From contig CBDFLD010000011.1 in the NCBI GenBank assembly GCA_965249005.1, positions 8,303-72,302 on the forward strand: a DNA stretch of 64,000 nt, given 5' to 3'. Position 1 is the first letter of the stretch; each line of letters opens with the position of its first letter. A program made the translations under genes and the position numbers. Below, in pieces: positions 4,989 through 49,358 of this stretch. The notes under the pieces are model-generated. The model worked only from the letters and a program-made list of their open reading frames with translations. It had not been told where the DNA came from and did not search any database. Source of the stretch: Acidobacteriota bacterium. GTDB lineage: Bacteria; Acidobacteriota; UBA6911.

Positions 4989-5924
4989 ATGGATCGAAAG
5001 ATCCATAGCCTTGAAAAACCGATCGAGGGAATCGTCCTCGGAAAACCCGAGGCTGTGCGTTTCGCTTTGGTGTGTCTGCTGGCCGACGGGCATCTGTTGA
5101 TCGAGGATGTTCCCGGAGTTGGAAAGACAACCCTCGCGCAGGCAATCGCCCGTGCCTTTTCCTGCTCATTCCATCGAATTCAATTCACCAGCGATCTGCT
5201 TCCCTCCGACATACTTGGTGTGTCGATATACAATCATCAGGAGCAGAGATTCGATCACCGCCCCGGACCGATTTTTGCAAATGTCGTCTTGGCGGACGAA
5301 ATCAACCGAACGACGCCCAAGACACAAAGCGCGCTCCTGGAAGTCATGAGTGAGGGCAGCGTCAGTGTCGACAACAGAACTCATGTGTCGCCAAGGCCCT
5401 TCATGGTGATTGCAACACAGAATCCGATTGAGCACCACGGCACCTATCCTTTACCGGAATCACAGCTCGACCGGTTCTTGCTACGTCTGCGCATGGGGTA
5501 TCCGACACTCGATGTCGAAAAGGCAATCCTACGACGACAGCATCACCGCCCAGATCTGGAGAATGTACAAAGCACGCTGACCGCAGAGGATATCGTCGAA
5601 GCGCAAGCCGAAGTCGCAGGGGTTCACGTCGAGGAAGCTCTCATCGATTATCTGATGGCAATCGTGGATGCTACCAGGCAATCCGAGTACCTGGCCCAGG
5701 GAGTCAGCCCGAGGGGCGCCCTAGCTCTGCAGCGAGCCGCGAGAGCGCTCGCCTATTATGAAGGTCGCGACTATTGCATCCCCGATGACATCAAGAGACT
5801 CGCCGTCTCGGTTCTCGCCCATCGGGTGATCGTGAGCTCCAAGTACGCTTCACTCCAGAAACGGAACGAGGAGGCGGAAACAGTTGTTGCTGAAATCGTC
5901 CGCAGCATCAGAATTCCAATTTAG
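4989..5924 (+). CDS. MoxR-family AAA+ ATPase
   Basis: GKPEAVRFALVCLLADGHLLIEDVPGVGKTTLAQAIARAF (Walker A) and VVLADEINRTTPKTQSALLEVM (Walker B) match the MoxR/AAA_3 family. ATG 4989 is chosen because conserved sequence begins there. The ORF-track start at 4836 adds 51 non-conserved residues. Confidence 0.9.
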   Translation: MDRKIHSLEKPIEGIVLGKPEAVRFALVCLLADGHLLIEDVPGVGKTTLAQAIARAFSCSFHRIQFTSDLLPSDILGVSIYNHQEQRFDHRPGPIFANVVLADEINRTTPKTQSALLEVMSEGSVSVDNRTHVSPRPFMVIATQNPIEHHGTYPLPESQLDRFLLRLRMGYPTLDVEKAILRRQHHRPDLENVQSTLTAEDIVEAQAEVAGVHVEEALIDYLMAIVDATRQSEYLAQGVSPRGALALQRAARALAYYEGRDYCIPDDIKRLAVSVLAHRVIVSSKYASLQKRNEEAETVVAEIVRSIRIPI

Positions 5925-7383
5925 CGGGCCTCCGGCGGTTCCTACAAAATCAATCAGACGGCATTGGGGCGTTGCTTTGGCCTACCTTCTCCTTGCCGTC
6001 GGACTCGCAATCGGCTCGCACTTCGCCGTATATCAAGGCCGGCCCCGCGAGGGGATTCTATTCTCGCTGCTGTCACTCGCCGTCGCTGCTGTCGCCGCTT
6101 GGTCCTTGATCCGCACGGCACGAAAAACGCGTCTGCTTCATTCCCTTGGAGCGTATTCCTTCGGCATCACACGACAGGGCTGGGCGTATCTGTTGGGAGT
6201 TCTGCTGCTCGGGCTCGCGGCCTTGAACACGGGGCAGAATCTTTTGTACCTCATCCTCGCTGCGCTCCTAGCGGCAATCATCACGTCCGGTATTGCGTCA
6301 CGGCTGTCCCTGCGCGGTCTCGATCTTTCGCTCCAGGTTCCCGAGTACATCTTCGAAAATGAGCTGATTCCCATAAAAGTGTCTCTTCAAAACGGCAAGG
6401 GGTTCCTGCCCTCATTCTCCCTACTTGTGGAAGACACACAGTCACAGCCGTCCCCCGCACGGTCCGCCCAACAGTTACTGTCCCGTGGGAGTCGCTTCGG
6501 AGGAGGGACTCGCGACCAGAACGGAGAGCCTGGGGAGGGCGGCGGATCCTCGAAAAAGGGGGCCGCACCGCGATCCAACAGAACCGTTTATTTCCCATGG
6601 ATCTCGGCTGGAGAGGTTCGATCGGAGCCGACCAATAGGCGCTTCACTCAAAGAGGCCAGTATCCGTTAAGAGGACTGCGCATCTCGACCTGCTTTCCGT
6701 TCGGGCTCTTTCGTCGCGGGCGCAACATCCCGTCAAATAAAGACGTCATTGTATTTCCACGAATTAGACGAGGGGTGTCCATGTCGGACCTGCTGCAATT
6801 GCTCCCCGGCTTCGCGGAGGGGACGCGCCCAGGGTCCGGCGAGAATCTATATTCACTTCGAAAATACGTCGAAGGCGAGTGTTCCCGTTTCATGGATTGG
6901 AAAGCAACCGCCAAGACGGGGGAATTGATGGTTCGGCAGTACGCGCACAATGACTCGAACAAGCTAGCCTTGATCCTCGATACCTTCCTGCCAGTTGCCG
7001 AATCCGACATTCCGGGAAAATGGGCCGGGAGGTTCGAGGAAGCGGTTTCGGCAACGGCCAGCCTCGCGGTACACTTCGCAGCCCAAGGGGTAAAGCTCGA
7101 GCTACTGTCGCAGCAGGGACATGTTTCGGGTACCGCAGGCGAGGATCCGTTGTTGCAGATCTTGCGCTTTCTCGCGCTCGTGCGATGCCGGGCAAGGTCT
7201 GAAAAAAAAGCGGACCTACGGACAGAGCTGGAGGGAGCCCTGGAAGGCACCATGGACCCATCCGATCTGCTCGAAACCCTCTCGAGCCGGGTCTACAAGA
7301 TCGTCCTCACCTCGAAACACCGCGGCAGCTTCCCTGCCACTACCTGGCGTTCGGCGCACGTTTTGTACTTTGAAGACCTATGA
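5884..7383 (+). CDS. DUF58 domain membrane protein (MoxR partner)
   Basis: FMDWKATAKTGELMVRQYAHND matches the DUF58 signature. Hydrophobic helices near the N-terminus. Position after moxR matches the known MoxR-DUF58 pairing. The TTG start at 5884 overlaps moxR by 41 nt, so the true start may be later (for example TTG 5977). Confidence 0.8.
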   Translation: MLLKSSAASEFQFSGPPAVPTKSIRRHWGVALAYLLLAVGLAIGSHFAVYQGRPREGILFSLLSLAVAAVAAWSLIRTARKTRLLHSLGAYSFGITRQGWAYLLGVLLLGLAALNTGQNLLYLILAALLAAIITSGIASRLSLRGLDLSLQVPEYIFENELIPIKVSLQNGKGFLPSFSLLVEDTQSQPSPARSAQQLLSRGSRFGGGTRDQNGEPGEGGGSSKKGAAPRSNRTVYFPWISAGEVRSEPTNRRFTQRGQYPLRGLRISTCFPFGLFRRGRNIPSNKDVIVFPRIRRGVSMSDLLQLLPGFAEGTRPGSGENLYSLRKYVEGECSRFMDWKATAKTGELMVRQYAHNDSNKLALILDTFLPVAESDIPGKWAGRFEEAVSATASLAVHFAAQGVKLELLSQQGHVSGTAGEDPLLQILRFLALVRCRARSEKKADLRTELEGALEGTMDPSDLLETLSSRVYKIVLTSKHRGSFPATTWRSAHVLYFEDL

Positions 7384-9533
7384 GCTTCGACCGATACTTC
7401 AAACTCTCATCCTATACTCTGATCGCTTCCGGCTATGTGGCCATGGCGGCCACAGGTGTTCTCGACCTATTCTCCGTCGTGGCGTTCGGGCTGGGGTTGG
7501 TCGCAAGTTGGCATCTGGACCCCAAGAAGATCAAACAGCGGCTTCCCGGATGGGCACTGAACGGAATACTCCTGGCGTACGTTCCGCTGTATCTACTGGA
7601 TTACCTCGCGGGCTCTGGGTCGTTCATTCTGGCAACGATCCACCTCACCCTCTTCGTCGCCCTGATCAAGCTTTTCACCGCGACCACCGACAGGGACTAC
7701 CGCTACTTGTACCTGATCAGCTTCGCCGAGTTACTGGCGGCAGCCACTCTCACCATCGATATCACATTCGTTGCATGCGTCATTCTGTTTTTCCTCTCTG
7801 GATCCAGCACACTTGTCCTGTTCGAAATGAAGCAAGCCGACGCCCGGGCTGCCGGGCGATCGGTGAAAGGGCACGCGCCTACGGACTTGCATGATCCCAC
7901 AACAACGCTCATCACCGGCTTCTCGGGACGGCGCTTGTTCTGGACCAGCCTGTTCCTCACGCTTGGAGTGCTACTGATTTCGATTCCGATCTTCTTCCTC
8001 ATACCCCGGGTGGCGTTGGGCGTCTATGGTCGTCCCTCCGGTCAGACTCAACTCCTGAGCGGATTCTCGGAGGAAGTGCACCTCGGCACCATTGGCACCA
8101 TCAAGAAGTCCGATGCTCTCGTGATGCACGTCAAGCTGAGTTCCGTTGTCCAGCAGCGAGCGTCCGAGCTCAAGTGGAGAGGAGTCGCGCTGGATCACTA
8201 TGACGGAAAAAGTTGGTCTAGAAGCGCAAATCCTCTTGCTGTCACCAAGGACGGGCCCTGGTTCAACCTGGGGTTCGAGCAGGCTCCGCCCATTTCAGGC
8301 GCATTCGAGCAGACTTTCTATCTGGAGGCTCTCTCGACAAACGTCGTTTTTGCAGCACCCCACGCGGTCGCCGTTTCGCGTGATTTGAACCTGCTTCGCC
8401 GGGACCTTCTGGGTAATCTGTTCACGGCTCCCCATCCATTTCACAAGATTCGGTACACGGTGCTATCACAAAAGGACGCCCCGAGACAGCCGGAACAGCT
8501 ACGCGGCCGTTATCTTCAGGTTCCCGACCTGGACCCGCGAATTGCACAGCTGGCCAATCGGGTGGTCCAGGATTGCAGAGACGAAGATGAAGTGGCCGGT
8601 TCCCTCGAGTCGTTTCTGAGGAACAACTACCAATATAGCCTGGAGCTGCCAACCGGACGGCCGGGCGCGGATCCGCTCGCGACCTTTCTGTTCGAGGCTC
8701 GCCGGGGACATTGCGAGTACTTTGCGTCGGCCATGGCCGTCATGTCGAGGCTACAAGGGCTGCCGACGCGCCTAGTCAACGGGTTCCGCTCCGGAGAGTA
8801 CAATCCTTTGGGTCAGGTCTGGTCCGTACGCCAGTACGACGCCCACAGCTGGGTCGAGGTGCATCTACCCGATGCTGGATGGGTGGAATTCGATCCGACG
8901 CCTCCGGACCCGCAACAACGAAGATCGGCCATCACCAGGACACTCTCACAGCTATTGGAAGCTCTCGACCTCTGGTGGAGCGAACAGATCATCCACTACT
9001 CCTCGTGGAAGCAGATTCGACTCCTCCGGGGTATTCGAACCGAGATCGCCGCCGGGGTACGATCTCTTCGCAACGCGGTGCACCTTTTCTTCGACCGTGG
9101 ATTCTCCGCGGCCTCCGAATACACTCTTGCCGACTGGCTCTGGAAGGTGGCGGCTCCACTAGCAGCGATCGCCGGCGTCGTGTTTGCAATCGCCTTGCTA
9201 TGGAAGCGGCGCGCTGAGTGGCTCCGTCGTCTCTCCCTCAGAGCAAACCACACGATCTTTCGAAAGGACCAGGGCACGTTGATCTCGAACATATACGAAG
9301 AAGCACTGTCACTCTTGAAGTCCCACGGGCACAATCGGACCGAGGCTCAGACACCGCTGGAGTTCGTGACAGCTCTGGGCGGCCATCCGGTGCGGGCTCC
9401 ACTCTCTGAGCTGACCGATACATACAACCGAATCCGCTTCAGCGCAAAACCAGCGCTCGACGACGTCGGCAGAGCCCGAACCCAGTTGAAGTCCCTGCGG
9501 CAAGCCCTAAGAGAAGGCGTGCGTCCTTCCTGA
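7380..9533 (+). CDS. Transglutaminase-like polytopic membrane protein (TgpA-like: N-terminal TM block + transglutaminase core + C-terminal TM/DUF4129-like tail)
   Basis: RRGHCEYFASAMAVMSRLQGLPTRLVNGF ... DAHSWVEVHLPDAGWVEFDPTP gives the Cys-His-Asp transglutaminase core. Several N-terminal TM helices. ATGA overlap with the DUF58 gene stop. Confidence 0.85.
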   Translation: MSFDRYFKLSSYTLIASGYVAMAATGVLDLFSVVAFGLGLVASWHLDPKKIKQRLPGWALNGILLAYVPLYLLDYLAGSGSFILATIHLTLFVALIKLFTATTDRDYRYLYLISFAELLAAATLTIDITFVACVILFFLSGSSTLVLFEMKQADARAAGRSVKGHAPTDLHDPTTTLITGFSGRRLFWTSLFLTLGVLLISIPIFFLIPRVALGVYGRPSGQTQLLSGFSEEVHLGTIGTIKKSDALVMHVKLSSVVQQRASELKWRGVALDHYDGKSWSRSANPLAVTKDGPWFNLGFEQAPPISGAFEQTFYLEALSTNVVFAAPHAVAVSRDLNLLRRDLLGNLFTAPHPFHKIRYTVLSQKDAPRQPEQLRGRYLQVPDLDPRIAQLANRVVQDCRDEDEVAGSLESFLRNNYQYSLELPTGRPGADPLATFLFEARRGHCEYFASAMAVMSRLQGLPTRLVNGFRSGEYNPLGQVWSVRQYDAHSWVEVHLPDAGWVEFDPTPPDPQQRRSAITRTLSQLLEALDLWWSEQIIHYSSWKQIRLLRGIRTEIAAGVRSLRNAVHLFFDRGFSAASEYTLADWLWKVAAPLAAIAGVVFAIALLWKRRAEWLRRLSLRANHTIFRKDQGTLISNIYEEALSLLKSHGHNRTEAQTPLEFVTALGGHPVRAPLSELTDTYNRIRFSAKPALDDVGRARTQLKSLRQALREGVRPS

Positions 9534-47580: not shown

Positions 47581-47613
47581 GTCCCAGATTTCCCGTTTAA
47601 TTAATTAGTTCAA

Positions 47614-47713
47614 CTTATCCAGAGTGGTGGAGGGACTGGCCCTGAGAAGCCACGGCAACCAGCCCACTGAGGCAAGGTGCTAATTCCTGCAGAAAGAATT
47701 TCTGGACGATGAG
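47614..47713 (+). promoter_or_regulatory. SAM-I (S-box) riboswitch aptamer
   Basis: CTTATCCAGAGTGGTGGAGGGACTGGCCCTGAGAAGCCACGGCAACCAGCCCACTGAGGCAAGGTGCTAATTCCTGCAGAAAGAATTTCTGGACGATGAG matches the S-box core (AGAG.GG.GGAGGGACTGGCCC..GAA.CC.GGCAACC...AAGGTGCTAATTCC.GCAG...GATGAG) with P1 CTTATC/GATGAG. Confidence 0.9.
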
Positions 47714-47736
47714 TTGGAGAGCCGAGCGGATCATCC

Positions 47737-47767
47737 AACCCTTTCTTTCCGGAAAGGGTTTTTTTTT
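47737..47767 (+). terminator. Intrinsic terminator of the riboswitch expression platform
   Basis: AACCCTTTC-TTTCCG-GAAAGGGTT followed by a run of T. Lies 33 nt upstream of the ATG at 47800. Confidence 0.85.
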
Positions 47768-47799
47768 GCGCGCGGCTAGCCACGCAGAGGGAAACGCTG

Positions 47800-49071
47800 A
47801 TGAACTATATGAAGAACCTGATTTGTAAAGAGTGTGGAGAGGCTTTCGAGGCCGAGAAACAGTTCGTGTGTAGCTCTTGCTTCGGTCCATTGGAGGTGTC
47901 CTATGACTATGCTGCTCTGTCGCGTGCAATGGGACCCGAAGACATCACAAACCGTCCGTACAATCTCTGGAGGTACAAGGAGCTTCTCCCGGTAACCGGC
48001 CCCCCGGCCACCGGGTTCCAGTCCGGATGGACCCCGCTGGTAAGGGCAGATCGCCTAGCGAAGACATGGGGGCTGGAGCAGCTCTATCTCAAGGACGATT
48101 CGGTCAACCACCCGACCCTATCCTACAAGGAGCGAGTCGTTTCAGTGGCGGTCACGCGAGCCCGGGAGCTGGGTTTCAAGACCATCGCGTGTGCGTCGAC
48201 TGGCAACCTTGCCAACTCGGTTTCGGCACACTGCGCGAGGCTCGGATTGCCTTGCTTTGTCTTCATACCCGACACGGTCGAACCGGCCAAGATCGTCGGT
48301 TCGGGAATTTACCAACCGCAAATCGTGCGTATTCGAGGAAATTATGACGACGTGAATCGGTTGTGCAGCGAGATCGGGAACGAATATGGGTGGGGATTCG
48401 TCAACGTAAATCTCCGTCCCTACTATACCGAAGGGGCCAAGACCTTTGGTTACGAAGTGGTCGAGCAGCTGAATTGGCGACTTCCCGATCATACGGTTCT
48501 GCCGACCGCGGGCGGCACCTTGCTGCCGAAGGTATCCAAGGCATACCGTGAGCTCACGGACTTGGGGTGGGCCGAGGGCAAGTCCAAGATTCATGCCGCG
48601 CAGGCAGCCGGATGTGCGCCCGTCATCCATGCATTGCACTCCGGAGCCAGTGAGATTCGACCGGTCAAGCCGGACACGATTGCCCATTCGATCGCGATCG
48701 GGAATCCTACAGATGGTCCTTACGTGCTCGATTGCGTACGAGAGAGCAATGGTTGGGGCGAAACGGCCTCGGATGAGGAAATACTTCAAGCAATCCACCT
48801 TCTGGCAGAAACCGAAGGCATTTTCGCCGAGCCTGCGGCAGGCACAACCCTGGCTGTCTGCAAAAAACTCGTCGACCAGGGACGTATAGGTCCTTCCGAG
48901 ACCGTGGTAGTCGGAATTACCGGAAACGGCTACAAAGCAACAGAGGCTGTGGCTTCCCGTCTCAATTGCTCAGTCCAGCTGTCTTCTTCCTTGAAGGATT
49001 TTCAATCCTGGCACCAGTCCCAGAGCCAAGGATCGGCGAAGCCATCAACGTTTTCTGGAGCGATACCATGA
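47800..49071 (+). CDS. Threonine-synthase-family PLP enzyme with N-terminal zinc ribbon (candidate homocysteine-forming enzyme rather than ThrC)
   Basis: CKECGEAFEAEKQFVCSSCFGPLEV zinc ribbon. PLP-lysine motif HPTLSYKERVVSV. GNLANSVSAHCARLG. Overall ThrC-like fold-type II pattern. Preceded by the SAM-I riboswitch. Confidence 0.8.
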   Translation: MNYMKNLICKECGEAFEAEKQFVCSSCFGPLEVSYDYAALSRAMGPEDITNRPYNLWRYKELLPVTGPPATGFQSGWTPLVRADRLAKTWGLEQLYLKDDSVNHPTLSYKERVVSVAVTRARELGFKTIACASTGNLANSVSAHCARLGLPCFVFIPDTVEPAKIVGSGIYQPQIVRIRGNYDDVNRLCSEIGNEYGWGFVNVNLRPYYTEGAKTFGYEVVEQLNWRLPDHTVLPTAGGTLLPKVSKAYRELTDLGWAEGKSKIHAAQAAGCAPVIHALHSGASEIRPVKPDTIAHSIAIGNPTDGPYVLDCVRESNGWGETASDEEILQAIHLLAETEGIFAEPAAGTTLAVCKKLVDQGRIGPSETVVVGITGNGYKATEAVASRLNCSVQLSSSLKDFQSWHQSQSQGSAKPSTFSGAIP

Positions 49072-49358
49072 GCATCACAGTTCGAATTCCCACGCCGCTG
49101 CGACAATATACCGAGCAGGAATCCGAGGTTCAGCTCGAGGGCGCAACGGTCGGCGAAATTCTCGAAGGATTCAAGACTCGGTTTCCGGATGCAGGGTCCC
49201 GGTTCTTCTCCGCGGAGAGCAAAACGTCTCGCTTCGTCAATCTCTATCTCAACGACGAGGACATCCGGTTTCTCGGAGATCTCGACACACCGGTCAAGGA
49301 CGAGGATACGGTTTCTATCGTCCTTGCGGTCGCCGGCGGCTGCCACTCCTGCTCGTAA
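49068..49358 (+). CDS. MoaD/ThiS-family sulfur-carrier protein with C-terminal GG followed by a 5-residue extension
   Basis: MSITVRIPTPLRQYTEQESEVQLEGATVGEILEGFKTRFPD...DEDTVSIVLAVAGG-CHSCS. The ATG overlaps the upstream stop (ATGA). Confidence 0.75.
   Translation: MSITVRIPTPLRQYTEQESEVQLEGATVGEILEGFKTRFPDAGSRFFSAESKTSRFVNLYLNDEDIRFLGDLDTPVKDEDTVSIVLAVAGGCHSCS

Follow-up and report, generated by a model that had tools for sequence, protein, structure and literature searches.

A SAM-I riboswitch precedes a probable metM-metO operon for thiocarboxylate-dependent homocysteine synthesis in an acidobacterium

The stretch considered here (hereafter the window) comprised 64,000 nucleotides of contig CBDFLD010000011.1 (positions 8,303 to 72,302, forward strand) of assembly GCA_965249005.1, which originates from an Acidobacteriota bacterium of lineage UBA6911. 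On its forward strand it harbored an S-adenosylmethionine (SAM)-I riboswitch followed by an intrinsic terminator, a gene for a pyridoxal 5'-phosphate (PLP) enzyme resembling threonine synthase (ThrC) and a gene for a small sulfur-carrier protein. The two genes are called metM-like (product P0001) and metO-like (product P0002) here, after the Streptomyces proteins MetM and MetO. As judged from sequence, they very probably form an operon terminated by the SAM riboswitch, whose products would turn O-phosphohomoserine into homocysteine with the sulfur of a MetO thiocarboxylate. Such a homocysteine synthase system had been suggested for this pair by a first-pass annotation, and the suggestion is now supported by the riboswitch, the phylogeny, a second ThrC, the genome inventory and the conserved context. 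The pathway itself is already published and included in GapMind; the acidobacterial operon is a further member and not a novel one.

The aptamer, of family RF00162 (SAM-I or S-box), was located at 47612-47715 by covariance search of the window and scored 89.1 bits (gathering threshold 44.4, E 7e-20). The match was complete, spanning model positions 1-108 with the full four-helix structure and without truncation, and was the sole above-threshold covariance match in the window. Reading by eye had placed it at 47614-47713, and the covariance search proposed as a check was thus passed strongly. Extended to the whole genome of 8.18 Mb, the search yielded no other RF00162 match, the metM leader being the only SAM-I element.

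An intrinsic terminator was found at 47737-47767, where the first-pass annotation had also drawn it. It consisted of a 10-bp G+C-rich stem (AACCCTTTCT/GGAAAGGGTT) with a four-nt loop (47737-47760), then a T-run up to 47767. It was recovered by terminator scan and in the sequence, and its hairpin, starting 22 bases 3' of the aptamer, was present in the minimum-free-energy fold of the leader. A candidate anti-terminator helix (47704-47750, forward strand) was displayed by the predicted fold of 47700-47750, a region that excludes the 5' strand of P1. This fold amounted to -12.2 kcal/mol and paired 47704-47720, which includes the 3' strand of P1 (47708-47715), with 47731-47750, which includes the 5' arm of the terminator. 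The candidate helix is mutually exclusive with both P1 and the terminator. The leader would consequently have the usual anti-terminator topology, with an expression platform made up of the terminator and this predicted helix. Further downstream, a Shine-Dalgarno-like AGAGGGA was read from the sequence at 47786-47792, seven nt 5' of the metM start codon. A sigma-70 promoter scan upstream of the riboswitch found no site.

The metM-like gene started with an ATG at 47800, comprised 423 codons and ended at 49071. Its product was confirmed as a fold-type II PLP enzyme of the ThrC family: it matched PALP with 237 bits and passed both NCBIfam equivalog models for threonine synthase, TIGR00260 (250 bits, cut-off 167) and NF006050 (307 bits, cut-off 303). 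Because proteins of this type pass the thrC models, they are routinely mis-annotated, and all named homologs of P0001 that were retrieved were labelled "threonine synthase". The expectation that the pair would be mistaken for thrC plus moaD was therefore well founded, and the problem is already recognised in the literature, MetM being often misannotated as threonine synthase according to the GapMind account (PMC13759103). The designation metM-like used here relies on family matches, clade, residue signature and conserved context together.

Two sequence traits emphasised at first sight were real and proved less distinctive than assumed. The N-terminal Cys-ribbon (C9-x2-C12...C24-x2-C27) was invariant across the family of P0001; the genuine ThrC paralog described below (P0122) likewise has an N-terminal Cys-ribbon, which is hence not diagnostic of P0001. 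Similarly, the lysine of motif N-H-P-T-L-S-Y-K110-E-R aligned with K61, the PLP lysine of Thermus thermophilus ThrC, but the SYKER form is no hallmark of the family, since most members of the clade read S[FY]KDRV.

The metO-like gene (49068-49358, forward strand) encoded a ThiS/MoaD-family sulfur-carrier pro-protein of 96 residues, as indicated by its context and by matches to PF02597 (53.8 bits) and to moaD_arch TIGR01687 (44.7 bits, just under the cut-off of that model). The TGA stop of metM and the ATG start of metO overlapped as ATGA at 49068-49071, in agreement with the translational coupling noted earlier. P0002 had been described as a MoaD/ThiS-like protein ending in GG; the family assignment was upheld while the terminus was not, for it read ...LAVAGG-CHSCS, with five residues beyond the diglycine, so that MetO would need C-terminal trimming. 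This tail was not conserved: same-family relatives with closely similar MetO bodies carried T, APCARIHR or a 77-residue extension after AGG, a variability consistent with a disposable pro-sequence cut off by a JAMM protease. The 3' end of metO was overlapped over 115 nt (49244-49358) by a convergent menC-like open reading frame on the reverse strand (o-succinylbenzoate synthase, TIGR01928, 331 bits). The latter extended about 100 codons past the end of its family model, and this extension is probably a non-functional read-through.

MetO, Mec, MoeZ and MetM of Streptomyces are presented as an experimentally supported homocysteine pathway in the GapMind 2026 account (PMC13759103). The first-pass annotation had mentioned such a report and was correct: both PMC13759103 and PMC12172450 cite it as Hasebe, Adachi, Maruyama and Hamano 2024 (Appl Environ Microbiol 90:e0124724). 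The metM gene of S. albulus is also preceded by a SAM riboswitch, as stated in PMC12172450.

A second ThrC-family gene, which had been named as an item to look for, was present in the genome. It was located on the reverse strand of contig C18 (139034-139990; locus L003:1351-2745), matched TIGR00260 with 222 bits and encoded a plant-type threonine synthase of about 459 residues (P0122). Among structures from the PDB, P0122 matched 1E5X, Arabidopsis threonine synthase 1, with 548 bits across 451 residues, the N-terminal region included, and four bacterial ThrC structures with 163-174 bits. P0001 reached only 116 bits with 1E5X, and its scores with the bacterial enzymes were 167-171 bits. The two proteins shared 28% identity.

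A maximum-likelihood tree was computed from 103 sequences, comprising representatives at 50% identity from an exhaustive profile search, named acidobacterial and actinomycete homologs, a CysM outgroup and five crystallised ThrCs (T. thermophilus 1UIM, Aquifex aeolicus 2ZSJ, Bacillus subtilis 6CGQ, Mycobacterium tuberculosis 2D1F and Arabidopsis thaliana 1E5X). Branch support is given as the Shimodaira-Hasegawa-like approximate likelihood ratio test (SH-aLRT). P0001 belonged to a clade of 55 rows (SH-aLRT 96) together with proteins from Micromonosporaceae and Actinoplanes, which were 47% identical to it, and with cyanobacterial proteins. P0122 and all five crystallised ThrCs formed a separate clade of seven rows (SH-aLRT 98) inside the sister group of the P0001 clade. 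The phylogeny, likewise proposed as a check, thus set P0001 apart from functional threonine synthases.

Both clades were further compared column by column in T. thermophilus numbering. The residues of the PLP site were common to the two (K61, S84-T85-G86, N154, E162-G163 and K165-T166). Six positions that are invariant in ThrC were replaced in the P0001 clade (T88L, S155N, N157R, R160Y, G187A and N191L), a one-residue insertion gave rise to an LRPYYxEG motif, and the KDRG of ThrC read K[DE]RV. Positions T88, S155 and R160 correspond to L137, N204 and Y209 of P0001 and were replaced in 84%, 80% and 100% of the clade rows, respectively. In T. thermophilus ThrC these three residues presumably hold the substrate or product phosphate needed to direct water to C-beta. 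If these roles are right, the replacements in the P0001 clade have reshaped the region of the active site on which reaction specificity depends. P0001 itself neither clustered with the characterised ThrCs nor conserved T88, S155 and R160.

These data bear directly on the view that P0001 is an additional threonine synthase (or synthase/deaminase) isozyme repressed by SAM, the carrier serving molybdopterin, cysteine or some other pathway. The TIGR00260 and NF006050 matches and the "threonine synthase" labels of all named homologs agree with this view, as do the threonine synthase and deaminase activities described in vitro for a cyanobacterial family member in PMC12172450. It appears most unlikely nevertheless. 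The genome already encodes a plant-type ThrC, P0001 lies outside the clade of characterised enzymes and lacks three of their invariant residues, and control by SAM would make no sense for threonine synthesis. Moreover, the carrier gene is translationally coupled to metM here and lies downstream of its counterparts in 62 of 80 loci (see below), and a genome deprived of MetM would be left with no evident route to homocysteine.

This last point emerged from an inventory of the whole assembly (8.18 Mb, 98.5% complete), in which classical metA, metX and metY-type genes were sought as the first-pass annotation had advised. MetX, MetA/HTS and HcyBio/COG1900 were all absent from the assembly, and so was any MetY-type sulfhydrylase, a single intact Cys/Met-metabolism PLP enzyme being encountered there. 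Homoserine kinase ThrB (262 bits, contig C21) and cobalamin-dependent MetH (1688 bits, contig C15) were both present, which indicates that O-phosphohomoserine is made and homocysteine consumed while no classical enzyme links them.

The intact Cys/Met-metabolism PLP enzyme was found on contig C22, where it directly adjoined a CBS-domain cystathionine beta-synthase, as would be expected if the two served reverse transsulfuration, in which cysteine is made from homocysteine. It matched NF005871 ("cystathionine gamma-synthase") with 526 bits (cut-off 513). A second copy, an open reading frame of 205 residues on contig C13 (259150-259793; locus L029:2716-3333, reverse strand), matched only the C-terminal half of such enzymes (model positions ~165-365; cystathionine gamma-synthase or methionine gamma-lyase type) and had no upstream room for an N-terminal half. 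It has the appearance of a decayed gene, which may have belonged to a classical route since lost. One could then imagine that homocysteine arises mainly as in plants, the contig C22 enzyme acting as an O-phosphohomoserine-dependent cystathionine gamma-synthase together with a beta-lyase, and MetM/MetO being auxiliary or conditional. The NF005871 score and the availability of O-phosphohomoserine would fit, but we give this scheme very little credence: the neighboring cystathionine beta-synthase points to the reverse direction, the gene is devoid of a SAM riboswitch whereas the only one of the genome precedes metM, and the truncated copy leaves no second intact enzyme to serve as beta-lyase.

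Contig C15 also harbored three adjoining genes on the reverse strand (5223-8044; locus L028:2724-5545), located beside glnB and glnA. They encoded a CysM-like cysteine synthase of 317 residues, identified by genome search, a JAMM/Prok-JAB (Mec-like) protease of 141 residues (Prok-JAB, 99.7 bits) and a MoeZ-like ThiS-ThiF-rhodanese fusion of 475 residues (ThiF 278 bits, rhodanese 69 bits). The fusion started with a ThiS domain (...PSIAGG|ATTSV...), followed by ThiF and then rhodanese. Its best NCBIfam matches were models of MoeB/MoeZ type, NF005902 (MoeZ) scoring 525 bits, below its cut-off of 647. The ThiS domain was 43% identical to P0002 and, according to phmmer, these two were the only CysO/MetO-type carriers of the genome. 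Release of the CysO-like carrier of the fusion would require its cleavage from the very enzyme that activates it. Judging from its gene families, the cluster would supply the two activities required by the MetM pathway besides MetM and MetO, although we infer their action on P0002.

Conservation of the locus was addressed by a pattern scan in which each prokaryotic species was represented by one genome; the best 80 loci, with relatives 48-75% identical to P0001, were considered. They originated from Acidobacteriota, Binatia, "Deltaproteobacteria", Planctomycetota, Elusimicrobiota, Nitrospirota, Aquificota, Cyanobacteria and Actinomycetota. Streptomyces was not represented among these 80 loci, and a search seeded with a Micromonosporaceae member gave only Micromonosporaceae. 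A ThiS-like gene lay downstream of the metM-like gene on the same strand in 62 of the 80 loci. Most of these carriers ended exactly with GG, some displayed one to eight additional residues, four were fused to a NIL-like domain (L054, L057, L058 and L060) and two to a ThiF domain (L055 and L104). A carrier fused after its Gly-Gly would need a JAMM cut for its release. The NIL-like and ThiF domains of these fusions were named by sequence inspection; the NIL-like ones span about 80 residues after the Gly-Gly, and a stand-alone NIL-like gene was encountered at L038:5543-5833. A small profile of four sequences found no such NIL-domain companion in the acidobacterial genome, a weak result as this profile missed even NIL domains of MetN type.

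RF00162 was detected upstream of 17 of the 20 closest loci and of six of the next 20, as well as in all five class-level relatives that were fetched separately; it was not found upstream of cyanobacterial loci among the closest 40. The gene content of the riboswitch operons was variable. Four loci from Binatia and "Deltaproteobacteria" (L036, L038, L039 and L041) displayed the succession of a ThiF-type activating enzyme (E1), metM, metO and a CysK/M-like gene, while in three Terriglobia loci (L040, L043 and L046) metM was preceded by a gene that resembles homoserine dehydrogenase, as judged solely by the N-terminus of its product. The member from Actinoplanes derwentensis displayed an RF00162 match directly upstream (72.7 bits) and no adjacent carrier. 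Taken together, the riboswitch and carrier associations connect the P0001 family with the metabolism of methionine and sulfur and not with that of threonine.

Like the Actinoplanes locus, eight Terriglobia/Acidobacteriota loci (L032-L035, L040, L043, L045 and L046) displayed a riboswitch-controlled metM without an adjacent carrier. This fits a variant in which O-phosphohomoserine is converted by P0001 to homocysteine, or to a related thioether, while the sulfur comes from free sulfide or some other donor and MetO is dispensable, regulatory or protective. The distance between the operon and the Mec-like and MoeZ-like genes would suit this variant as well. We consider it improbable. It has to face the ATGA coupling observed here, the carrier adjacency in most of the 80 loci and the operons that include a ThiF E1 or MetO-ThiF fusions; carriers may also sit elsewhere in the genomes whose loci lack them. 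In addition, the Streptomyces system requires MetO, Mec and MoeZ according to the account in PMC13759103.

Several observations weigh against a MetM/MetO route in this acidobacterium. The main caution against extending the MetM function across the whole family comes from its Microcystis member, which is 51.6% identical to MetM and has a metO-like neighbor; as described in PMC12172450, this protein was mainly a threonine synthase/deaminase in vitro and displayed no clear MetM function in vivo. Secondly, the link between P0001 and S. albulus MetM (A0A059WBP2) would run via actinomycete and cyanobacterial clade members, context and regulation. Thirdly, the contig C22 enzyme could in principle use O-phosphohomoserine, as does plant cystathionine gamma-synthase. 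Fourthly, the Mec-like and MoeZ-like genes presumed to act with the operon are unlinked to it and lie on another contig. Finally, among 61 relatives a MetM ortholog was present in 17, a true MetX in 30 and both in two; this anticorrelation had a p value of 4e-4 by genome, but of 0.44 when collapsed to genera. Because of the genus-level value, phyletic complementarity of MetM and MetX was rejected as strong evidence and is regarded as suggestive only.

Under the preferred reading, the thiocarboxylate-dependent route would operate as follows. When SAM is plentiful, the aptamer would bind it, P1 would be stabilised, the terminator at 47737-47767 would form and transcription would halt before metM. 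Under SAM shortage, pairing of the P1 3' strand with the terminator's 5' arm would instead allow transcription to continue through the operon. O-phosphohomoserine made by ThrB would be taken up by MetM, a PLP enzyme derived from threonine synthase, which would eliminate phosphate and add, at the gamma carbon, the sulfur of the C-terminal thiocarboxylate of MetO. The predicted product is homocysteine, formed directly or via a MetO-homocysteine adduct, and MetH would methylate it to methionine. Beforehand, the MetO pro-protein would lose the CHSCS tail behind its Gly-Gly, the JAMM/Mec-like protease of contig C15 being the likeliest enzyme for this step, and the exposed glycine would be adenylated and thiocarboxylated by the neighboring MoeZ-like ThiF-rhodanese enzyme. 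Threonine would be supplied by the separate plant-type ThrC of contig C18, which places the branch point between threonine and methionine at O-phosphohomoserine, as in plants. MetM/MetO is probably the only route to homocysteine in this organism.

The proposed system was compared with S. albulus MetM/MetO/Mec/MoeZ as described in the literature. In both, a PLP enzyme homologous to ThrC coexists with a separate housekeeping ThrC, metM is preceded by a SAM riboswitch (also found in Actinoplanes), and ThrB supplies O-phosphohomoserine. Both also have a carrier of ThiS/MoaD type whose C-terminus must be matured, and their genomes encode a ThiF-rhodanese sulfur ligase as well as a JAMM hydrolase. 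They differ in their hosts, Acidobacteriota here, and in the tail of MetO: the GapMind name "[MetO]-L-cysteine hydrolase" (PMC13759103) would suggest a single-cysteine tail in Streptomyces, in contrast to the CHSCS encountered here. MoeZ is here fused to a second, CysO-like carrier, and metM is translationally coupled to metO, unlike the carrier-less Actinoplanes locus. Furthermore, the classical MetA/MetX routes appear absent here, which makes MetM/MetO the likely sole source of homocysteine.

The CysO/CysM/Mec+/MoeZ system of M. tuberculosis resembles the one proposed here in that a fold-type II PLP enzyme whose substrate is an O-phospho amino acid receives its sulfur from a protein thiocarboxylate, with JAMM and MoeZ partners, and the contig C15 cluster looks like that system. 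The enzyme considered here is ThrC-derived instead of CysM-derived, and would be regulated by SAM and catalyse a gamma-replacement on O-phosphohomoserine instead of a beta-replacement on O-phosphoserine. With bona fide ThrCs (116-171 bits) P0001 shares its fold family, the PLP lysine, the A-S-T-G loop, N154, the E162-G163-x-K165-T166 stretch and, as predicted, the substrate O-phosphohomoserine; it is distinguished from them by its separate clade, the six replacements, the insertion, the sulfur carrier and the SAM riboswitch.

The likeness to plants extends to the branch point as a whole, where O-phosphohomoserine is split between threonine and methionine and SAM would govern the partition, the threonine synthase found here being of plant type. 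The methionine arm is different, as MetM/MetO would take the place of cystathionine gamma-synthase. Moreover, on present evidence the target of SAM would be an RNA switch and not the enzyme. Plant threonine synthase is allosterically activated by SAM. It is conceivable, if rather unlikely, that SAM acts on both arms here, shutting off MetM/MetO through the riboswitch and activating P0122, or that a single Mec/MoeZ pair matures and loads both the tailed MetO and the CysO fused to MoeZ. Dual control, if true, would mean that the plant mechanism has a precedent in bacteria, joined there to an RNA switch, while a shared Mec/MoeZ pair would link the sulfur supplies of cysteine and methionine. P0122 displayed a Cys-ribbon (CxxxC...CxxC) absent from the plant enzyme, and a literature search turned up no usable list of the SAM-binding residues of Arabidopsis threonine synthase.

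Recognition of such operons corrects a systematic annotation error, the "threonine synthase" label that the NCBIfam thrC models confer on P0001. With the operon so interpreted, the lack of MetA, MetX and MetY does not leave this acidobacterium deficient in methionine biosynthesis. This bears on metabolic reconstruction and on the prediction of auxotrophies in soil Acidobacteriota and in the many other phyla in which the architecture recurs. The details added here to the known pathway are the variable carrier tail, the CysO-MoeZ fusion beside Mec and CysM, and the E1 or homoserine-dehydrogenase-like gene present in some operons.

Additional observations were made in the course of the genome searches. 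Two matches of identical score (136.5 bits) to the cobalamin-binding region of MetH were encountered about 63 kb apart on contig C14 (295679-296350 and 358950-359621), each with one in-frame TGA, and further genes resembling MetH fragments lay nearby (C14:299962-301890). Duplication of a corrinoid-protein locus, a selenocysteine codon or a repeat in the assembly could each account for these matches. On contig C4 (16282-16971 and 20283-20543), a third ThiF-family gene was found less than 4 kb from a second weak match to a JAB domain; together they may belong to a further module, for ubiquitin-like conjugation or of defence type, that has nothing to do with the methionine system. Lastly, one acidobacterial relative displayed an Acido-Lenti-1 small RNA (RF01687, 52.8 bits; L035:6147-6192) about 2 kb downstream of its metM-like gene.

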